A stretch of DNA of 64,000 bases from Escherichia coli (GCA_025544715.1 GCA_025544715.1_4109.3), one strand, 5' to 3'. Counted from the first letter of the stretch, positions 6,762 through 60,467 are shown. Notes: generated by a model from the letters alone, not told the origin. Numbers and translations: made by a program.

Positions 6762-6868
6762 GATAAAATATTATACCACAACTATAACGCATATCTTATC
6801 TCTTTGTCATCAATCGATGTTCAGATACTAATAATTATATCAGTTATTGGTTTTTTGTCCCACTATTT

Positions 6869-8116: not shown

Positions 8117-8539
8117 TTAAATTAATCTGTCACGTAGACGGTCGTAATATTTTTTGTGTATAGCTAGTATACACTGATATGCAGAATAGTCAATACCAAA
8201 TGTATCATCAATGAACATGTACTGATCAAGTGTTTCGGGTCCATTATCATCAACTGGTAATGTCCCTTCTTTTTTTGATAGTGTGTGCCACATCAACTCA
8301 CTTTCAATATGGTGAGTTGCGTATGTCAATTCTATCTTACTTTTTCGTAGTAAAATTAACAATTCATCATTGTCGTCGAGTGCATTACGAAATTTAATAC
8401 GAACTGTACCCTGGAAATTATTAGTGTACATAACACGATGATGATTGTATGAAATCAAACCACGCCTTTCAGTACTGATTTCGTGTTCAGCAAAGTACTT
8501 TAACGTTTCATTAAATTTTGGAATTTTAGTAACGTCCAA
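8117..8539 (-). CDS. Hypothetical protein, tandem paralog A
   Basis: Shares YMFIDDTFGIDYSAYQ-like block with adjacent ORF 8526-8942. Confidence 0.5.
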   Translation of the reverse strand: MDVTKIPKFNETLKYFAEHEISTERRGLISYNHHRVMYTNNFQGTVRIKFRNALDDNDELLILLRKSKIELTYATHHIESELMWHTLSKKEGTLPVDDNGPETLDQYMFIDDTFGIDYSAYQCILAIHKKYYDRLRDRLI

Positions 8540-8942
8540 TCACATAATCCTCATAAAGTTCGTATACCCTCATTATACTCTGATATGTATCAAAGTCAAT
8601 ACCAAAGGTATCCTCAATGAACTGATATTGCAAAAACTCTTCCTCTGTGGCAGCAATAGGAAGAGTCCCGTTTCGTTGTTCTGGGGATTGAACATCCTCA
8701 ATATACATCAACACTATACCTTCATCCAGATTTATATCTATCATAAAAACATCTTCACTATAAAATATGTTATATGTACGGATGAAGAGATTTCCTGTTC
8801 TATCATAACTTGACACGTGTGTTTCATAATACATTTTATCTAAACTAAAGAACAAACCTGTACTATCTGGCTTTTTAGTATTTTTTAATTTAATTTCGAT
8901 AGCATCAATAATAGGTTTAATATCAAACTTTTTCATAGACAA
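8526..8942 (-). CDS. Hypothetical protein, tandem paralog B
   Basis: Shares YQFIEDTFGIDFDTYQ block with 8117-8539. Confidence 0.5.
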   Translation of the reverse strand: MSMKKFDIKPIIDAIEIKLKNTKKPDSTGLFFSLDKMYYETHVSSYDRTGNLFIRTYNIFYSEDVFMIDINLDEGIVLMYIEDVQSPEQRNGTLPIAATEEEFLQYQFIEDTFGIDFDTYQSIMRVYELYEDYVIGRY

Positions 8943-11792: not shown

Positions 11793-12149
11793 TTATTTCT
11801 TGTGTAAAGGTTCATCACTTTCATAATAAATTGTATCATTATTTCGCTCTATAGTAAAGCTCTTTTGACACAACTCTTCAGCTAAACCCTTTGCATAGTT
11901 TAATACATCTCGGTTGAGATATACTTCTTCTTTTGGAAAGCGTGGGTACTGAATAATACGAGCACACATCCCACTTTCAAGACCACCCGTGTAGATGTAT
12001 TCACACGGAATCAATTGTACACAAAAACCAAGATTGAATGCAAACTTTCTTGTGTACTCTCTTGCTGTTTGAATATCACCAGCAATATGGATATTCCAGT
12101 ACTGTGTCTCCACTGTACCTTTATCGATGTATTTCATACTCATCTCCAA
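11793..12149 (-). CDS. Hypothetical protein (118 aa)
   Basis: ORF in array. Confidence 0.45.
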   Translation of the reverse strand: MEMSMKYIDKGTVETQYWNIHIAGDIQTAREYTRKFAFNLGFCVQLIPCEYIYTGGLESGMCARIIQYPRFPKEEVYLNRDVLNYAKGLAEELCQKSFTIERNNDTIYYESDEPLHKK

Positions 12150-12166
12150 TTATAGCACTAAAAATC

Positions 12167-16017: not shown

Positions 16018-16458
16018 TTATTGTAAAACTTTAAGTTTGTAAAGTGTTCCTTCAACAAAACTCATAATATCTTCTAATGTGTTTACACTGCCGTAATCAC
16101 CCGATTCTTCAAGCATATCATGAATTGCTCTGCATTGCTCAACATATTCTTCAAGAATTGGTACACAATCTTCAATTGGTGTAAAACGATAACTATTACC
16201 AGTCCCAACTTGTAAAGCACCACGATTATTCATGATACCTTCAACAAATGCGTCTACATATTCTGGTAATTCTTTATATAGTTCATCTAATTGTAAATGC
16301 TTTGTATAAAAATGACATTGTAAGTGCCAGTTATGTGCAGCAGAACTTAAAAACAAACTATTTTCAATAAAAGTTAATAGTACTTCATCATATGAATTAT
16401 CTTCTTCAGTACTTCCGATAAAGTCCATTACGTGTCGTAAATCATTAATATCTTCCAT
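16018..16458 (-). CDS. Hypothetical protein (146 aa); possibly ferritin/Dps-like helical
   Basis: ORF in array; His/Glu-rich helical pattern, weak. Confidence 0.4.
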   Translation of the reverse strand: MEDINDLRHVMDFIGSTEEDNSYDEVLLTFIENSLFLSSAAHNWHLQCHFYTKHLQLDELYKELPEYVDAFVEGIMNNRGALQVGTGNSYRFTPIEDCVPILEEYVEQCRAIHDMLEESGDYGSVNTLEDIMSFVEGTLYKLKVLQ

Positions 16459-16490: not shown

Positions 16491-16919
16491 TTAGTTAATA
16501 ATAAAGGTAATTTCAGGATTCATTTCCGAAACTGCATTTCGTTTACTTCTATCCCATAGTATTCTGTTATTATACAAAGAAGAATCACATACTACAAGTA
16601 AGCAATGTCTTAATCTACTTACAGTACTTTGATTATTTAAATCAGTTTCTGAAATAAAAAATACATTTTCAGGAACTATTAAAGGAATAGATTTATCAAA
16701 AAACAAAACTACAATAGGTCTTGTTGTATGAACTGATTTAACGAAATCCAAAATACTATTATAAAAATTACTTTCTTTATTAATTACTGACGGATCTTTA
16801 ATTCTTTTCAAATATTGCTGTGGTAATTGATGTTCGTCTTTTATCTGGAACTCAAAATATTCTTTGAATAACATTTGTGTTAATTCAGATTTATCGGATA
16901 TTTTCGTTGTGTTACTCAT
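16491..16919 (-). CDS. Hypothetical protein (142 aa)
   Basis: ORF directly downstream of the non-coding structured region. Confidence 0.45.
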   Translation of the reverse strand: MSNTTKISDKSELTQMLFKEYFEFQIKDEHQLPQQYLKRIKDPSVINKESNFYNSILDFVKSVHTTRPIVVLFFDKSIPLIVPENVFFISETDLNNQSTVSRLRHCLLVVCDSSLYNNRILWDRSKRNAVSEMNPEITFIIN

Positions 16920-17058
16920 TCACTTCGTTCTCTCGTAACTCAAGAAGTCACTGCGTTTACTTCGTAAACTAGTTCCTTCTGAAAATGATAATGTACTTTA
17001 AAAACTTGACGGGATTTGTTGAGGACTATTACATCCCCCCGCAGGGGAATGAAGGTAA

Positions 17059-17082
17059 TAAAAAAGAGACAATTAAGTCTCT
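17059..17082 (-). terminator. Rho-independent terminator at 3' end of ORF-free region
   Basis: Hairpin AGAGAC-TTAATT-GTCTCT then T6. Confidence 0.55.
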
Positions 17083-17122
17083 CTTGACGATGATGGCATC
17101 GGATATTATCGAATTGCGAATT

Positions 17123-17151
17123 TCTCAAATTTTGGACGGATCTTTCTTGTA
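17123..17151. repeat. Direct repeat unit A (TCTCAAATTTTGGACG-N4-TTTCTTGTA) with stem AAATTTTGG/CCAAAATTT
   Basis: 25/29 nt identical to unit B at 17275-17303. Confidence 0.6.
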
Positions 17152-17274
17152 CCAAAATTTAGAGAGCGAAAGCGGGTTGCTCGGTTTCTCTCTATCGCAG
17201 TCATATGCAACGGTCGCTGGTCTTTTCATCAACAGCACTCAGTACTAACTCTATTCGATCAAAGTAGTACCTGT

Positions 17275-17303
17275 TCTCAAATTTTGGACGCAACTTTCTT
17301 GTA
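17275..17303. repeat. Direct repeat unit B with stem GGACGCAA/TTGCGTCC
   Basis: See unit A; similar loop sequence CTTTCTTGTA. Confidence 0.6.
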
Positions 17304-17608
17304 AAATTGCGTCCGCTATTCTTAAACTCCCTTAGCAAATCTGGTAAGGTGCGAACCTTATACATCTATCTAGGAACTCTCTGTATGCTTATCGGAGTTC
17401 TTTATACAGCCGTGTCGCCGTGATTCGTGGTCTTACATCGTGTTTGTTTAAATGCCAGTACTCTAACAGGTTTCTTCTGCTGTTCGCTACAACGGTAAAG
17501 CTCATCTATCCTTTACATTTTCAAGAGAAGTAGGTTCTCAGTGTCCATTTTTCAATGTCCGTTGTCATTTTCTATATACATTATATCATTGGAACATATA
17601 ATGTCCCA

Positions 17609-18082
17609 TTACATGTATACTTTTTTTAAATCCTTAGAACAACGATCAAAAATTGTGTTTATGAATTCAACATCTTCGATAATATTCGAATCGTTAGCAA
17701 CATTTTCATTTCTTGTCGTATTCCTATATGTGTGTTCAGGATGATTGTATACCACCTTGACTACATTATTTAGGTCTATAAAATTTGACGTTTTTTGCGT
17801 ATAGGAAGCCTGAAGCTTGATGAGTTTACCATCATTCTCAAGATTGGTTTTATGAATTAGTTCTTCAATGCCAGTTAAATGGCTATAGCTATCTTTTTCT
17901 TTTACAAAAGTAATAGTAACAAGAACTGCTTTCTCATCTCCCATATCGGAAATGTTTTTTACAGCACTGATAATTTCTAAGTTTGAAAAATCTAATTCTT
18001 TAAGCATTTTACAAATATTTCCACAAAGTTCGATAAGTGATAATTTCTTCTCTGGTAACAGAAACTTCATTGCACTTAACAC
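17609..18082 (-). CDS. Hypothetical protein (157 aa; likely true start at 18007, 132 aa)
   Basis: Internal ATG at 18007 lies 1 nt past the upstream gene stop. Confidence 0.45.
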   Translation of the reverse strand: MLSAMKFLLPEKKLSLIELCGNICKMLKELDFSNLEIISAVKNISDMGDEKAVLVTITFVKEKDSYSHLTGIEELIHKTNLENDGKLIKLQASYTQKTSNFIDLNNVVKVVYNHPEHTYRNTTRNENVANDSNIIEDVEFINTIFDRCSKDLKKVYM

Positions 18083-18417: not shown

Positions 18418-19074
18418 TCAATCATGTTTATTCAATTTCTTCTGTTCTTTTTTCAAAGCTTTCATATGACGACCAAACTCTCGAACATGCCATAGATGAT
18501 CGGTTTCCCATAATTCTTGACGTAACCTACGTTCTTCTAGTAGTTTCGACTTGTCAATGTTATTTTTCTTTTTTTGTACATTAAAGAAATTATTCATATG
18601 TTCTTGAAGAAGATTACGACCTTTAACTTTCTCAAGAAACTCATCAACTGTTTCAGTTTTATTAGAACGTAGTTGATTGCATTTGGAGCACATAGTATTA
18701 AAGTTTGTTTCTAAATCAGGACCACCCTTAGATGCCAGATGGTTGTGATCAACTGTCATCAACACTTCATAAAGACCACATACAGCATATACATTTAAAT
18801 GTGGTTTACCATATACTGGATCAGAACTAAATGAACGTTCAATGCGTACTTCAGTGGCTTCAATCCCACATGCCACGCATTTTGGATTCTTAACAAAAGT
18901 AAGAACTTTTTGTGGGAAATATCGAAAAGTAATACCATTTAAAGTATAACGTTTCATCTTAGTACTTCGTTGATTTAATTCGTCAAGAAGTGATAATTTT
19001 GTCGTATAGTAAACATGATATTTGTTCATTTTATTCCTTGATATTGATTTTAATATCTTTACCTTGTAAATCAC
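18418..19074 (-). CDS. HNH homing endonuclease (likely start at 19029)
   Basis: HNH motif DHNHLASKGG...N...CSKCN with flanking Cys pairs. Confidence 0.6.
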   Translation of the reverse strand: MIYKVKILKSISRNKMNKYHVYYTTKLSLLDELNQRSTKMKRYTLNGITFRYFPQKVLTFVKNPKCVACGIEATEVRIERSFSSDPVYGKPHLNVYAVCGLYEVLMTVDHNHLASKGGPDLETNFNTMCSKCNQLRSNKTETVDEFLEKVKGRNLLQEHMNNFFNVQKKKNNIDKSKLLEERRLRQELWETDHLWHVREFGRHMKALKKEQKKLNKHD

Positions 19075-19339
19075 GAATAGTTTTAATTAATGCATCATGT
19101 TTTAAAGCACATTCGTTGTATACTGCATCCCAACGAGTAAGTACTTTAAGAATTTCTGCACCATCATAACCTTTAAAACCATTTTTGTCAATCATAATTT
19201 TTTGTGGTAGAGGTGTATCATCATCACATCTTTCTAACAGAATTTCTTGTTTAATTGGTGCAGGGGATTGTAGTTTTACTTGTTCTGCACATCCACTTAT
19301 AATTAAAAAAGAAATAAACGGAACTAATAATTTTTTCAT
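19031..19339 (-). CDS. Outer-membrane lipoprotein, putative o-spanin
   Basis: Signal peptide with lipobox LIISGC; directly downstream of TM plus coiled-coil gene. Confidence 0.45.
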   Translation of the reverse strand: MKKLLVPFISFLIISGCAEQVKLQSPAPIKQEILLERCDDDTPLPQKIMIDKNGFKGYDGAEILKVLTRWDAVYNECALKHDALIKTIRDLQGKDIKINIKE

Positions 19340-19710
19340 TTGAATTTATTCCTCGCAGCTTGAGAATTTTGTTTTAGTTCATTCAGTACTTTTACACCAT
19401 CTTCATCTAAACATACATTCTTATAAACTTCACGTTCTACAATAAAAGGAACTTTTGTTTCAATAACTTTAGCATTATCTTCCATGATTTTTTTAGTTTC
19501 AAGGTAATTTTTTGCATTTTCTTGTTGCATTTTATCCAAGGCGGTATCAACTTTTTTAGCTATTTGTTGCTCTATGCTTTGTTGATAGCCACTGTAATAA
19601 GTATTAGCTTCCCAACCAGCATAAGCTGAACCGCCAATCAATAATACAAAAGAAATTGGTTTCCAAAATGGAATAAGAATTTTCGAAACAATTATTTCTA
19701 ACATACTCAT
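19336..19710 (-). CDS. Putative i-spanin (N-terminal TM, coiled-coil periplasmic domain)
   Basis: N-terminal TM helix, charged helical remainder; overlaps lipoprotein gene. Confidence 0.45.
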   Translation of the reverse strand: MSMLEIIVSKILIPFWKPISFVLLIGGSAYAGWEANTYYSGYQQSIEQQIAKKVDTALDKMQQENAKNYLETKKIMEDNAKVIETKVPFIVEREVYKNVCLDEDGVKVLNELKQNSQAARNKFK

Positions 19711-20257: not shown

Positions 20258-23047
20258 TTATAAATCACGGAAACGATTTGGTGTGTTTAAACGGTACATT
20301 GAGTATAACCCCAATCCACGCATAATCTCACCTGCCCAGAAACCAAAAAACATACCATTATCAGTACCTTCTCTAACTGCTGGACTCCATGATCCATTCA
20401 TTGGGGAACTTGGATTTACAATAACATAATTCTTTTGAAGTTCTAAAACTAAGTTATCAGCGAGTGTCGTTAGACCTTCTATTTTACATCCAGCTAATCC
20501 AGCAGCACAAGCCCCAGCTAACCACAACCCACACATATGACCTGTAAAGTCCCAATCTGGTCCTTCAACTGTGCCATCTTTATTGAAGATTGTTGGTGAA
20601 CGACCATCATTATCTTTTTGAAATTGAATTAAAAAGTGAATCCAATTCTCACAAAAATCAACAAGATCTGCTGGTGGTTCGATTCCTCTTTCTGCAAGTT
20701 CTTGCCATGCTCTTGCAGCCCCAAAGAATGCACGAGGTTCATACCCGCTCCATGCTTGATCTCCCCAGTGTAGCATTGTGAACGTGTCTGGTTCACCATA
20801 TTTTAAGTTATCCCAGCGGTTCCAAACATATGCTTGTGCACATGGACCAACAGTACCGAATTGTTGAGTAAACCATGTTTGAGAATCTTTCATAAAGCTT
20901 AACATGTTGCCTAAACGTGTGTTATCTACTGGTTGGTCTTTAAAACAATATATCACTGGATACTGATAACCAGGATAAGGCAATCCACGCCAACCAGAAT
21001 ACTGATTCGCATACGGGTCAGTGATGTTAGAAAATGGTATTGTTCCAGGAGTGTAATGCAATGAGTTTAACAAATAATCTTTGATTACACAATCCCCTAA
21101 CTGTGCAGTATAAGGTGATTCACCTGCAATTGTTATTGAGAATGTCATGGTATAGTCATCACCGTCAGCATCCGTATATAATTCTGGAATGTCATTAATA
21201 CAATACCAATCAATTATTGCAGCAACACCATCTACTGGGGTTGTATCAGGTAAAATAGTAATATCTTCTAGCTCACTATAAACTGGTGCATCTGGTCTTG
21301 GATCAGAACTTGGATGATTTGGCTGATACCCAGATAAACGTAATGTATCAGAACTTAGTGTGATAGTAGTCCATTCCCCGTGTGTTGCAGGAATCATCCA
21401 CCACCATCTCCAACCATTATCATCTACAATTCGTATATTATAATCATCTTCATATGAACGATATGTGAAAGATTTAACTTCAGACTTATTTGTTGCTAAT
21501 AACCAAAATCCAATAACAGCACCATCATCTTCACCACAAACCAACTGATTAATTGTATCGCGTCTTGTGATTAATATATCAGTACTATATAACATTTCTG
21601 ATGTAGCTGCACCATAAGGAACAACAATTCTACTATCAGCAATTATATAAGGGGAACCATCTGCTTTCTTTTCTCTAACAAATGCACTTAAAGGTGTTAA
21701 TGAATGTGTGATATTTTGGTCTTTACTTTCTGGTAAGCCGCAACGATAACGAACAACATCATGGTCATTTTTTGTTTTTGACAATTCCAGTACTGGTTTA
21801 AATGATAACGGTTTACCATCATCGCACACGCCACCATAGTCAACTAGCAATTTTGAATCAGCATTTACCCTGAACCAAATAGCTTGTTGCTCCATCGTAC
21901 TCTGTGCACTTTGGTCTTGTCTGATAGTAATGTATCCTAACGAATTTCTACCAAACTTAGCAATAGCATCACTTGGATAAAAATATTCATAGGAAATACC
22001 ATCAGTGAATGGTGTGGTTACAATTGTACTTTGTCTGAAAAATTTATCTCTGGAGTCGATATCACCATAAGCATAGCATGTGAGTAGTGAACATTTCCAA
22101 CCCAAATAATGTTTTCTTTCTTTAGTTATTTTATATAACAAATACGAAGCATCACTGAACCATAATTCTGCATCTGATGCGTTATCAGCAAATTCTAAAT
22201 TAATTGGAACATGAAGTGGGCGGTTGTGTTGCATTTCATTTCGTTGAATTATTACACCACCATATTCTACTGGTTGACGATTAGCAAAATTTAATTTATA
22301 TACACCATTAATTGTTGTATTCTTTAATTGAACAGTTCCTTTTTCAGATTCGTCAAAACCTTCTGCTAAAATATTACCATCCCAGTCGATTTTTCTACCC
22401 ATGAAATCAATAACCCAGTCAACATCATATTGTTCACCTGGTGTATCCCAATCAACACTACCATCTGGTAATAAAGCTTTTACTGACGCATTTATTTGGT
22501 TCCATGCTAAAGCACCTTTGAATGCAAATGTCACTTTATCCAAGAACTGACCATAATATGGTGCACCATGTGGTATTTTGCATTGACCATTAGTAAATGT
22601 AAATTCTACTCCCTTGAAACCACCATGTGTGGGCCAGCCATCATCAGCTAAAGGCCAGTTAGCCAATATAGGTTCTTTTGCATTAACTATCCAGTTACAT
22701 TGTAGCGGTGTAGGTGGATCTGGTAATTCACGTCCAGCATAAAAGTACTGATGATATGCGTCCCAATACCACTTTGCCTTATCTAAAAACATTGGATCAT
22801 TTGTAGCCAGATATGCATAAATGTATCCTAAAATTAATAGACTTTGACCTTCTGTTGTCCCGTCACCGTTTGGTTGACCTTCCATTGCAGAATAGTTAAT
22901 AAAATGGCGGTTGTTCGCCAAAACACCCTGATTGTTCACCACATAATGCTGTACTGTTGGGTCTATTGTATCACCAGTATTTCTTTCAATAAATTTGTGA
23001 TGCCCATAAAGAAGTTGTACAATATTATCAATATTATTGTTTAACAT
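20258..23047 (-). CDS. Large protein (929 aa), unknown function; possible glycosidase-like or virion-associated
   Basis: Long ORF; Trp/Gly-rich C-terminal region; followed by terminator. Confidence 0.55.
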   Translation of the reverse strand: MLNNNIDNIVQLLYGHHKFIERNTGDTIDPTVQHYVVNNQGVLANNRHFINYSAMEGQPNGDGTTEGQSLLILGYIYAYLATNDPMFLDKAKWYWDAYHQYFYAGRELPDPPTPLQCNWIVNAKEPILANWPLADDGWPTHGGFKGVEFTFTNGQCKIPHGAPYYGQFLDKVTFAFKGALAWNQINASVKALLPDGSVDWDTPGEQYDVDWVIDFMGRKIDWDGNILAEGFDESEKGTVQLKNTTINGVYKLNFANRQPVEYGGVIIQRNEMQHNRPLHVPINLEFADNASDAELWFSDASYLLYKITKERKHYLGWKCSLLTCYAYGDIDSRDKFFRQSTIVTTPFTDGISYEYFYPSDAIAKFGRNSLGYITIRQDQSAQSTMEQQAIWFRVNADSKLLVDYGGVCDDGKPLSFKPVLELSKTKNDHDVVRYRCGLPESKDQNITHSLTPLSAFVREKKADGSPYIIADSRIVVPYGAATSEMLYSTDILITRRDTINQLVCGEDDGAVIGFWLLATNKSEVKSFTYRSYEDDYNIRIVDDNGWRWWWMIPATHGEWTTITLSSDTLRLSGYQPNHPSSDPRPDAPVYSELEDITILPDTTPVDGVAAIIDWYCINDIPELYTDADGDDYTMTFSITIAGESPYTAQLGDCVIKDYLLNSLHYTPGTIPFSNITDPYANQYSGWRGLPYPGYQYPVIYCFKDQPVDNTRLGNMLSFMKDSQTWFTQQFGTVGPCAQAYVWNRWDNLKYGEPDTFTMLHWGDQAWSGYEPRAFFGAARAWQELAERGIEPPADLVDFCENWIHFLIQFQKDNDGRSPTIFNKDGTVEGPDWDFTGHMCGLWLAGACAAGLAGCKIEGLTTLADNLVLELQKNYVIVNPSSPMNGSWSPAVREGTDNGMFFGFWAGEIMRGLGLYSMYRLNTPNRFRDL

Positions 23048-60170: not shown

Positions 60171-60467
60171 TTAATATATAATCTCACTAGCTTCTATTGT
60201 GTAGACACCATCATCAGTCATTAATCTTACTGCAACTTTAATATTACTAGACAATCGTGTAACTATCAATCCAATAATTATACCATCCTTTAAAGTACCA
60301 TTATGGTATCTTACTTGTACTTTAGTTTTGTTATCAATTAGGTATCTTCGAATATAATGAATTTCAGTTCTAAACAGTTCTAAGTAAACTTCACTATATT
60401 CCTTATCTGAACCGTCTGAACACCAGTACAATAAATTTACTTGTTCAAATAATTTTTTTATATTCAT
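60171..60467 (-). CDS. Hypothetical protein (98 aa)
   Basis: ORF in array. Confidence 0.4.
   Translation of the reverse strand: MNIKKLFEQVNLLYWCSDGSDKEYSEVYLELFRTEIHYIRRYLIDNKTKVQVRYHNGTLKDGIIIGLIVTRLSSNIKVAVRLMTDDGVYTIEASEIIY

Follow-up and report, generated by a model that had tools for sequence, protein, structure and literature searches.

Positions 17059-17608 of a 64,000-nucleotide (nt) stretch of DNA filed under Escherichia coli (GCA_025544715.1), hereafter the window, almost certainly hold the gene for a large, highly structured non-coding RNA (ncRNA) on the minus strand, with its own promoter and, in this copy, its own terminator. At least 14 helices and three pseudoknots were found to make up the two domains of the RNA, and the helices are joined by invariant single-stranded blocks. 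The region had been singled out earlier as a stretch free of open reading frames (ORFs) with two hairpin-forming direct repeats, and a stable phage ncRNA, an iteron-type replication origin or a protein-binding regulatory RNA had been put forward as its role. The stable phage ncRNA is now strongly supported by the promoter, the terminator, covariation, conserved G-U pairs, the lack of a conserved ORF and conservation beyond the flanking genes, the RNA itself being a prediction. The minus-strand sense, the length of ~510 nt, the three pseudoknots, the presence of four to five paralogues per genome and the optional nature of the repeats, which paralogue B lacks, had not been seen at that stage.

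Conservation of the region

A blastn search with positions 16900-17700 against phage records gave 230 matching places in 61 records. The window was found to be DNA of an Asteriusvirus jumbo phage, with Escherichia phage vB_Eco_slurp01 as the top match (99.9% identity); PBECO4, 121Q and further jumbo phages of Asteriusvirus, ~350 kb in size, came next. Each Asteriusvirus record had four matching places. Distant matches of 67-71% identity were found in Cronobacter phage GAP32 and in Erwinia phages, and the records outside Escherichia came from phages of Salmonella, Erwinia, Yersinia, Cronobacter, Pectobacterium, Serratia, Xanthomonas and Klebsiella. In the distant phages the alignment was limited to positions 108-639 of the query, which correspond to the ORF-free stretch, and did not extend into the ends of the flanking genes. 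The region is bounded by the minus-strand genes 17609-18082 (upstream) and 16491-16919. Its higher GC content was confirmed, with 0.38-0.42 over positions 16900-17599 compared to 0.235-0.31 downstream and 0.30-0.33 upstream.

Covariation and strand of the RNA

Three alignments were scored by pair counting against structures specified by the authors, with 500 shuffles for each and with the partners slid by 1-3 columns. The results were as follows.

5' domain (alignment A1), 42 sequences, 28 pairs: 95.7% paired versus 77.8% shuffled and 26-44% slid; 173 compensatory cells versus 44 shuffled
Middle region (alignment A3), 26 sequences, 10 pairs: 90.1% paired versus 63.8% shuffled and 33-48% slid; 62 compensatory cells versus 15 shuffled
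3' domain (alignment A2), 28 sequences, 42 pairs: 97.7% paired versus 73.3% shuffled and 37-45% slid; 268 compensatory cells versus 69 shuffled

The observed percentage of pairing, number of compensatory cells and covariation score were reached by 0 of 500 shuffles in all three alignments. In the small middle alignment, 17 of the 500 shuffles reached the weaker measure of pair count and 9 that of type count. The scoring covered 80 pairs, spread over 14 helices of which three are pseudoknots, and 67 of the 80 had changed on both sides. The compensatory changes thus exceed those given by composition and relatedness, as in a structured ncRNA gene. Every tested helix can be formed by the window copy.

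Conserved G-U pairs were observed in the inner part of P9 (69 G-U versus one A-C), in P10 (28 U-G) and in P12 (24 G-U), and P5 of the window copy holds a U-G pair. On the plus strand these pairs would be A-C mismatches, and together with the promoter and the terminator they show the minus strand to be the RNA sense. A promoter and a terminator of its own are predicted on this same G-U-bearing strand, as in an ncRNA gene.

Promoter, terminator and predicted transcript

The following signals were identified.

17580-17607, minus strand: promoter, with a -35-like GGGACA (17607-17602), a 16-nt spacer and an extended -10 element TGATATAAT (17588-17580)
17060-17573, minus strand: predicted primary RNA of ~513 nt, its ends (start site and terminator U-tract) given by promoter and terminator
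17057-17085, minus strand: intrinsic terminator, AAGAGAGAC-UUAAUU-GUCUCUUUU, overlapping a run of six U

The promoter scored 10 out of 12, with TG, in a promoter scan, and transcription is predicted to start at ~17573. TGTGnTATAAT with (A)TGRRAC ~17 nt upstream was found to precede every member of the family. Promoters with a TGAAACG -35 element and a classic -10 (TATA) element have been reported for phages CBB and GAP32, and those of CBB are mostly located before DNA-synthesis genes (PMC5259590). The promoter of the RNA gene belongs to the same class. Extended -10 promoters (TGNTATAAT) were found at 19 sites in the window as a whole, versus 9.4 expected, a number reached by no shuffle; the minus strand, which carries the genes, has 15 of them, e.g. 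2361-2369, 6770-6778, 12149-12157 and 60277-60285.

The terminator consists of a 9-bp hairpin directly before U6 (-10.8 kcal/mol, z = -4.8), which is the arrangement of an intrinsic terminator. It was missing from the list of a simple, strict consensus scan. A hairpin followed by at least five U was present at this position in 45 of 75 family members and absent in the other 30. The original prediction let the element end in this terminator; hairpin and U-tract were found as described, at 17085-17057, but the element continues past 17059 to ~17005. The match of the nhmmer family profile in the window covered 17563-17003 on the minus strand (E = 4.6e-105).

Fold of the RNA

The helices and the blocks between them were located as follows.

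17486-17565, minus strand: first part of the 5' domain, with P1, P2, P3 and the pseudoknot helix PK1
17565-17559 with 17495-17489, minus strand: P1, 8 of 8 pairs compensatory
17557-17546, minus strand: P2, a GAAA-capped hairpin
17533-17506, minus strand: P3, a bulged hairpin with conserved loop GAAAAUGUA, 7 of 8 pairs compensatory
17501-17499 (GCU) with 17488-17486 (AGC), minus strand: PK1, a 3-bp pseudoknot helix, 100% paired
17406-17483, minus strand: P4 region, in which P4 encloses the invariant AAAAGAAA, P5 with a variable extension, and GGCgAcaCGGC
17483-17479 (ACAGC) with 17410-17406 (GCUGU), minus strand: P4, 100% paired, 4 of 5 pairs compensatory
17469-17466 with 17421-17418, minus strand: P5, 100% paired
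17327-17400, minus strand: middle region, with P6, the invariant CUAGAUAG, P7, ACCA and the invariant Shine-Dalgarno-like UAAGGGAG (17334-17327)
17400-17395 (GAACUC) with 17379-17374 (GAGUUC), minus strand: P6 hairpin, 94.9% paired, 6 of 6 pairs compensatory
17359-17346, minus strand: P7 hairpin, 3 pairs supported
17108-17271, minus strand: 3' domain (alignment A2), with P9, P10, the pseudoknots PK2 and PK3 and the P11-P13 junction
17271-17241, minus strand: P9 hairpin
17259-17253 (AUCGAAU, loop of P9) with 17114-17108 (AUUCGAU), minus strand: PK2, 7 of 7 pairs compensatory
17237-17215, minus strand: P10
17211-17207 (GUUGC) with 17180-17176 (GCAAC, in the loop of P12), minus strand: PK3, 100% paired
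17199-17195 with 17119-17115 (P11) and 17192-17188 with 17172-17168 (P12), minus strand: three-way junction, completed by P13
17083-17101, minus strand: P14, a tentative small hairpin, CGAUG-CCAU-CAUCG, which overlaps box 1 (see below) and varies in register between members

The middle pair of PK1 was UA in 24, AU in 11 and CG in 7 sequences with no exception, and P4 was seen as eight different complementary 5-mers. PK2, which joins the loop of P9 to the strand just 3' of P11, occurred elsewhere as UUGUAU/AUACAA, UCAUAU/AUAUGA and CUGAAUU/AAUUCAG, and variants of PK3 included GUCAU/AUGAC and GUUAC/GUAAC. At the base of P13, 4 of 4 pairs were compensatory. The 'GNRA-like' elements GCGAAAGC of the original prediction turned out to be a plus-strand reading; the RNA-strand sequence is GCUUUCGC, in which the 3' strand of P12 is found instead of a tetraloop.

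The blocks between the helices were invariant or nearly so: GAAAAUGUA, AGAUGAG, AAAAGAAA, GGCAAUGCGGC, UAUAAAG, GAUAGAC, UAAGGGAG, GACCG, GAUAG and GAAAC..ACCCGC. Pairing partners were sought for the invariant single-stranded blocks, and none was found with a pairing fraction typical of real helices. Invariant blocks without a partner are the pattern expected of tertiary contacts, a binding pocket or an active site.

The direct repeats are a peripheral hairpin module

The two direct repeats, 17122-17151 and 17274-17303, were confirmed by blastn, with 28 of 30 positions identical. The repeat reads UACAAGAAAG(A/U)U(C/G)CGUCCAAAAUUUGAG, and together with the 5' AAAUUUUG it folds into a hairpin whose stem is rich in A/U and whose 16-nt loop is conserved. 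The two copies are the following.

17275-17314, minus strand: module copy 1 (repeat 17275-17303), stem GGACGCAA/UUGCGUCC, loop UUUUACAAGAAAG, 3' tail AAAAUUUGAG
17123-17165, minus strand: module copy 2 (repeat 17123-17151), which extends P13, UCUC-U-AAAUUUUGG / CCAAAAUUU-GAGA, loop UACAAGAAAGAUCCGU

Both folded into stable hairpins on the minus strand, with -17.4 kcal/mol (z = -5.7) for copy 1 and -12.4 kcal/mol (z = -3.7) for copy 2, so that the hairpins of the original prediction hold. Its loop, CTTTCTTGTA, was read from the plus strand and is the complement of the real one. Across the family the module was found at one of two sites, either after UAAGGGAG or at the tip of P13; copies of the GAP32 type carry it at the P13 site, as in window copy 2. 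In the whole of a related genome it was confined to the RNA genes, occurring twice in copy A, once each in copies C and D and not at all in copy B. The direct repeats are thus two copies of an optional, position-swapping peripheral module that was found only in this RNA family. The repeats are neither part of the core nor an iteron array; position-swapping modules are also seen in large ribozymes.

Conserved 3' extension

The sequence downstream of the core contains three conserved elements besides the terminator, which only some members have.

17094-17083, minus strand: box 1, AUCAUCGUCAAG, conserved in all members
17005-17051, minus strand: 3' extension, a C-run/G-run hairpin followed by box 2, conserved throughout the family
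17051-17032, minus strand: C-run/G-run hairpin, CAUUCCCC-UGCG-GGGGGAUG, -13.8 kcal/mol
17017-17005, minus strand: box 2, AAAUCCCGUCAAG

The order in the family is core, box 1 (AUCNNCGUCAR), terminator (if present), C/G hairpin and box 2 (AAAUCYCGUCAR). The small C-run/G-run hairpin had already been pointed out in the original prediction. The two boxes were found to vary together, with CGTCAG/CGTCAG in 39, CGTCAA/CGTCAA in 24 and CTTCAA/CTTCAA in 4 members, and 8 members discordant. The loops of the hairpin module share the CGUC core with both boxes. The parallel boxes and the CGUC of the module loops suggest one common reader or processing activity; the parallel variation could alternatively be due to shared ancestry. 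A function of box 2 as a general phage promoter was ruled out by its single occurrence, AAAYCYCGTCA being found exactly once in the 64-kb window.

Coding potential and searches of known RNAs

The ORF-free character of the stretch was confirmed. The overlapping ORFs, called mechanically in the window, were only 34-87 amino acids long, had no Pfam or PHROGs match and were not conserved. In 42 homologues the longest stop-free stretch had a median of 77 amino acids versus 64 in shuffled sequences (97 at the 95th percentile), and the copies differed in where it lay, in its frame and in its start codon. No ORF conserved in position and frame and no protein-family match was thus found. In public records up to six short 'hypothetical proteins' per record are placed across the RNA gene, mostly on the antisense strand, e.g. 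121Q gp516 and UE-S1_463. These look like annotation artefacts.

Rfam 15 was searched with 4227 covariance models, including GOLLD, ROOL, OLE, HEARO, RNase P, group I and II introns, 6S, tmRNA and riboswitches. No match was obtained in the whole window at the gathering threshold, and the RNA fits no family catalogued there. In E-value mode, positions 16850-17750 gave only chance matches of the snoRNA type (E 0.4-9), and in 13 homologous loci searched up to E = 5 no match lay inside the element and nothing was consistent. A tRNA and tmRNA scan found none. In the open-access literature searched, no paper describing the element was found, and catalogues of unnamed motifs (e.g. PMC10690425) may contain it undescribed.

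Individual RNA classes were also considered. A group I intron was rejected on account of the separate, complete flanking ORFs that differ between paralogues, the conserved promoter of the RNA gene itself and the lack of an Intron_gpI match. RNase P RNA was rejected since the two domains lie side by side with no closing helix and no RNase P model matched. A hammerhead, a box C/D K-turn, a T-box and a Shine-Dalgarno mimic, compared by eye, fail on topology or conserved motifs and had no support from covariance models.

Paralogues and distribution of the family

Copies were searched for in the nearly identical, unannotated genome ECO103 4-12-1 (OR844650.1). Four were found, at ~18.4, 128.5, 208.3 and 261.7 kb of the 352-kb genome. 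They share one orientation, and identities among them are 69-74%; the copy at 208.3 kb corresponds to the window copy. The nhmmer profile found exactly those four in ECO103 4-12-1 and one in the window. A degenerate pattern taken from the most conserved block gave 79 stretches in IMG/VR, where jumbo-phage contigs had four to five matches each, e.g. four in 121Q and five in GAP32. The 15 loci on contigs other than those of jumbo phages proved to be chance matches in GC-rich coding DNA. The element is thus one of four diverged paralogues in Asteriusvirus, with four to five in related Enterobacterales phages of ~350-380 kb.

The pattern initially used for collection, the 14-mer GTCCAAAATTTGAG, was too unspecific and gave mostly chance matches. 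With a stricter 22-base pattern, 77 loci were found in metagenomes and three in 100,044 species-representative genomes. All three genome loci were full family members on low-GC contigs resembling phage DNA within bacterial assemblies, namely Enterobacteriaceae bacterium RIT714 (WJYB01000004.1, 299 kb), a metagenome-assembled 'Clostridium sp.' (DPOH01000171.1, 2.8 kb) and Silvania hatchlandensis (NZ_JAMGZK010000045.1, 185 kb). These contigs are probably jumbo-phage DNA inside bacterial assemblies, or mis-binned.

The profile gave 140 matches, corresponding to 90 distinct full-length members. In GAP32-like phages five paralogue groups were observed, each in several phage contigs and with at most two members per contig. 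Because each group recurs in several contigs, the paralogues are older than the GAP32-like species and have been maintained as separate groups. Each paralogue has different flanking genes, and none is common among them. Paralogue B (~127.6-128.3 kb in ECO103 4-12-1) is followed by a stretch of ~450-550 nt that lacks the start of any ORF of 45 amino acids or more. It adjoins the first of two large GC-skew reversals in that genome, at ~130-140 kb; the other is at ~320 kb.

Neighbouring genes and other features of the window

The upstream gene and the other neighbours, all on the minus strand, are listed below.

17609-18082, minus strand: upstream gene, Pfam DUF7325 (1e-54), labelled 'structural protein' in 121Q
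16018-16458, 18418-19074, 19336-19710 and 20258-23047, minus strand: other neighbouring genes

Matched by position to 121Q, the neighbours include a Dps-like 'starvation-inducible DNA-binding protein', an HNH endonuclease, an Rz-like spanin and a tail fibre protein. At 8168-8216 and 8574-8622 the window has two direct copies of a 49-nt repeat, with 86% identity and 406 bp apart, which probably stem from an internal duplication within a coding region.

Possible function of the RNA

The RNA probably acts in trans as a compact tertiary fold, either as the scaffold of a ribonucleoprotein or as a ribozyme-like RNA. It would be transcribed by the host RNA polymerase from the TGAAAC-type promoter class of the phage, and the AUC..CGUC motif present in the module loops, box 1 and box 2 would be the docking or processing site of one common partner. 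A role as a protein-binding regulatory RNA, as in the original prediction, is possible and overlaps with this explanation. More tentatively, the family could represent large catalytic or self-assembling RNAs of a novel class, or provide the RNA core of a novel phage ribonucleoprotein, in either case particular to jumbo phages of the RaK2/121Q/GAP32 type, with paralogues of distinct specificities and with the AUC..CGUC boxes as its own processing or partner-docking sites. Some points weigh against action in trans. Covariation demonstrates structure and not action in trans, and both the ends and the abundance of the RNA are predictions. The 3' extension is kept beyond the terminator, where a simple terminated stand-alone RNA does not need it. 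The 30 of 75 members with no terminator between core and 3' extension may be 5' leaders of mRNAs. It is mainly because of this 3' part, with its boxes and extension, that a cis-acting leader and a replication origin have to be considered.

In a cis-acting leader, the structured 5' part of an operon transcript would govern read-through past the terminator and the C/G hairpin, as an attenuator or sensor or as an antiterminator similar to put. This is rather unlikely. Every copy lies upstream of a gene array and in the same orientation, an orientation shared by most genes of the genome anyway, and different paralogues have unrelated genes downstream. The interval from box 2 to the next start codon, at 16919, yielded no promoter-like site, and the succession of core and extension, interrupted by a terminator in 45 of 75 copies and running straight on in 30, with the extension conserved past it, would suit a leader. 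A possible switch was also noted, in which the G-run may pair either with the C-run or with AUCYC of box 2 (columns 496-501 with 523-528). The pairing with box 2, however, shows only one-sided changes that tolerate G-U, and no covarying alternative pairing involves the terminator. Moreover, 430 nt with three pseudoknots far exceed the needs of known attenuators and put RNAs.

As a replication origin, each copy would be one of several, the promoter would make a pre-primer or R-loop RNA, and boxes 1 and 2 would be initiator-binding direct repeats flanking the GC hairpin. T4 oriF and oriG use middle promoters. The promoter class seen here is found before DNA-synthesis genes in phage CBB (PMC5259590), the copies are dispersed (~18, 128, 208 and 262 kb of 352 kb), and the boxes are direct repeats that change in parallel, which may however reflect nothing but shared ancestry. 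An origin is nevertheless improbable, as selection at the RNA level extends over ~430 nt, with G-U pairs and pseudoknots that a primer transcript does not need. The region is richer in GC than its flanks and has no AT-rich unwinding element, and three of the four copies lack an inflection in GC skew. The iteron-type origin of the original prediction has further difficulties: there are only two repeats, where an iteron array needs at least three, both are RNA hairpins, and paralogue B lacks them. A role of the 3' boxes at the DNA level is still conceivable.

Two other explanations carry far less weight. The RNA or its 3' C/G hairpin could be an anti-defence decoy that mimics a host RNA, e.g. 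the repeat of a type I-E CRISPR system, and titrates a defence protein. Phage RNA anti-CRISPRs built from solitary repeats exist, and UUCCCC...GGGGAUgAAA resembles by eye what we take to be the enterobacterial I-E repeat, GUUCCCCGCGCCAGCGGGGAUAAACCG, a likeness that serves as a lead only. The stem is shorter and the loop different from those of the I-E repeat, the hairpin is equally conserved in phages whose hosts have other CRISPR types, and a covarying core of 430 nt is left unexplained; such a decoy is very improbable. There is a negligible chance that the region is just an ordinary intergenic spacer holding a promoter and a terminator, or else a small protein gene missed in annotation. Several GenBank records do place short hypothetical proteins there, and mechanical ORFs of 54-87 amino acids are present, but the covariation statistics contradict this explanation, the element is still conserved in other phage genera, in which alignment of the flanking genes is lost, and neither a conserved ORF nor a protein-family match was found.

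Comparison with known systems

GOLLD and ROOL are 'ornate' large RNAs of unknown function, associated with phages or prophages, that form RNA-only multimers (bioRxiv 10.1101/2024.12.08.627333). The present RNA is similar in its length of several hundred nt, its many covarying helices and pseudoknots, its phage origin and its own transcription unit. Unlike GOLLD and ROOL, it has no Rfam match, i.e. no homology in sequence or structure, and no tRNA genes nearby, and it occurs as four to five diverged paralogues per genome in lytic jumbo phages of Enterobacterales. The family is thus new within the loosely defined kind of large ornate phage-associated RNAs, and is not homologous to GOLLD or ROOL.

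Large ribozymes such as RNase P RNA and group I introns resemble the RNA in size, long-range pseudoknots and invariant joining regions, and likewise carry a peripheral element at alternative positions in different members. In contrast to them, the RNA has its own promoter and is not inserted in a gene, and no covariance-model match was found at E values up to 10. A short local likeness of ACGACCGUUGCA..AUAGAGAGAAAC to ACGACCAGUGCAACAGAGAGCAAAC, which we take to be a segment of E. coli M1 RNA, was noted. Unlike RNase P RNA, the present RNA has no P1 that closes the whole molecule and no P4-type CR-I/CR-V helix.

In the distantly related Pseudomonas jumbo phage PA5oct, ncRNA001-004 are ORF-free transcribed regions of 0.24-0.62 kb supported by RNA-seq, and two of them each account for roughly 1-5% of the phage reads at three time points (PMC7318152). 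The two most abundant, ncRNA001 and ncRNA002 (MK797984), were compared with the RNA family by nhmmer, and no homology was found. In a related lineage of jumbo phages, these 'putative lncRNA' (long non-coding RNA) genes are an analogous case of abundant transcripts free of ORFs. ColE1 RNA II and T4 oriF/oriG share with the RNA a promoter-driven structured transcript of ~0.5 kb, several dispersed copies and a replication-linked promoter class; they differ in that the RNA-level constraint is much heavier here and that neither an unwinding element nor a skew signal is present. The put RNA of HK022 likewise follows immediately on a promoter and is itself followed by a terminator and a gene array, and its phage relies on the polymerase of the host. 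With ~70 nt and two hairpins, put is about seven times smaller than the present RNA and of unrelated architecture.

Significance of the RNA family

Large RNAs of such tertiary complexity are rare, and each earlier class revealed new biology. HEARO proved to be the omega-RNA that guides IscB, and ROOL and GOLLD assemble into cages of RNA. In genome records the RNA gene is labelled as nothing at all or as small 'hypothetical proteins', which the helix map and the set of 90 members allow to be corrected. The same map and set make the family directly testable. Some of the largest coliphages in culture, several of them now being proposed for therapy, have kept four to five diverged copies of it.

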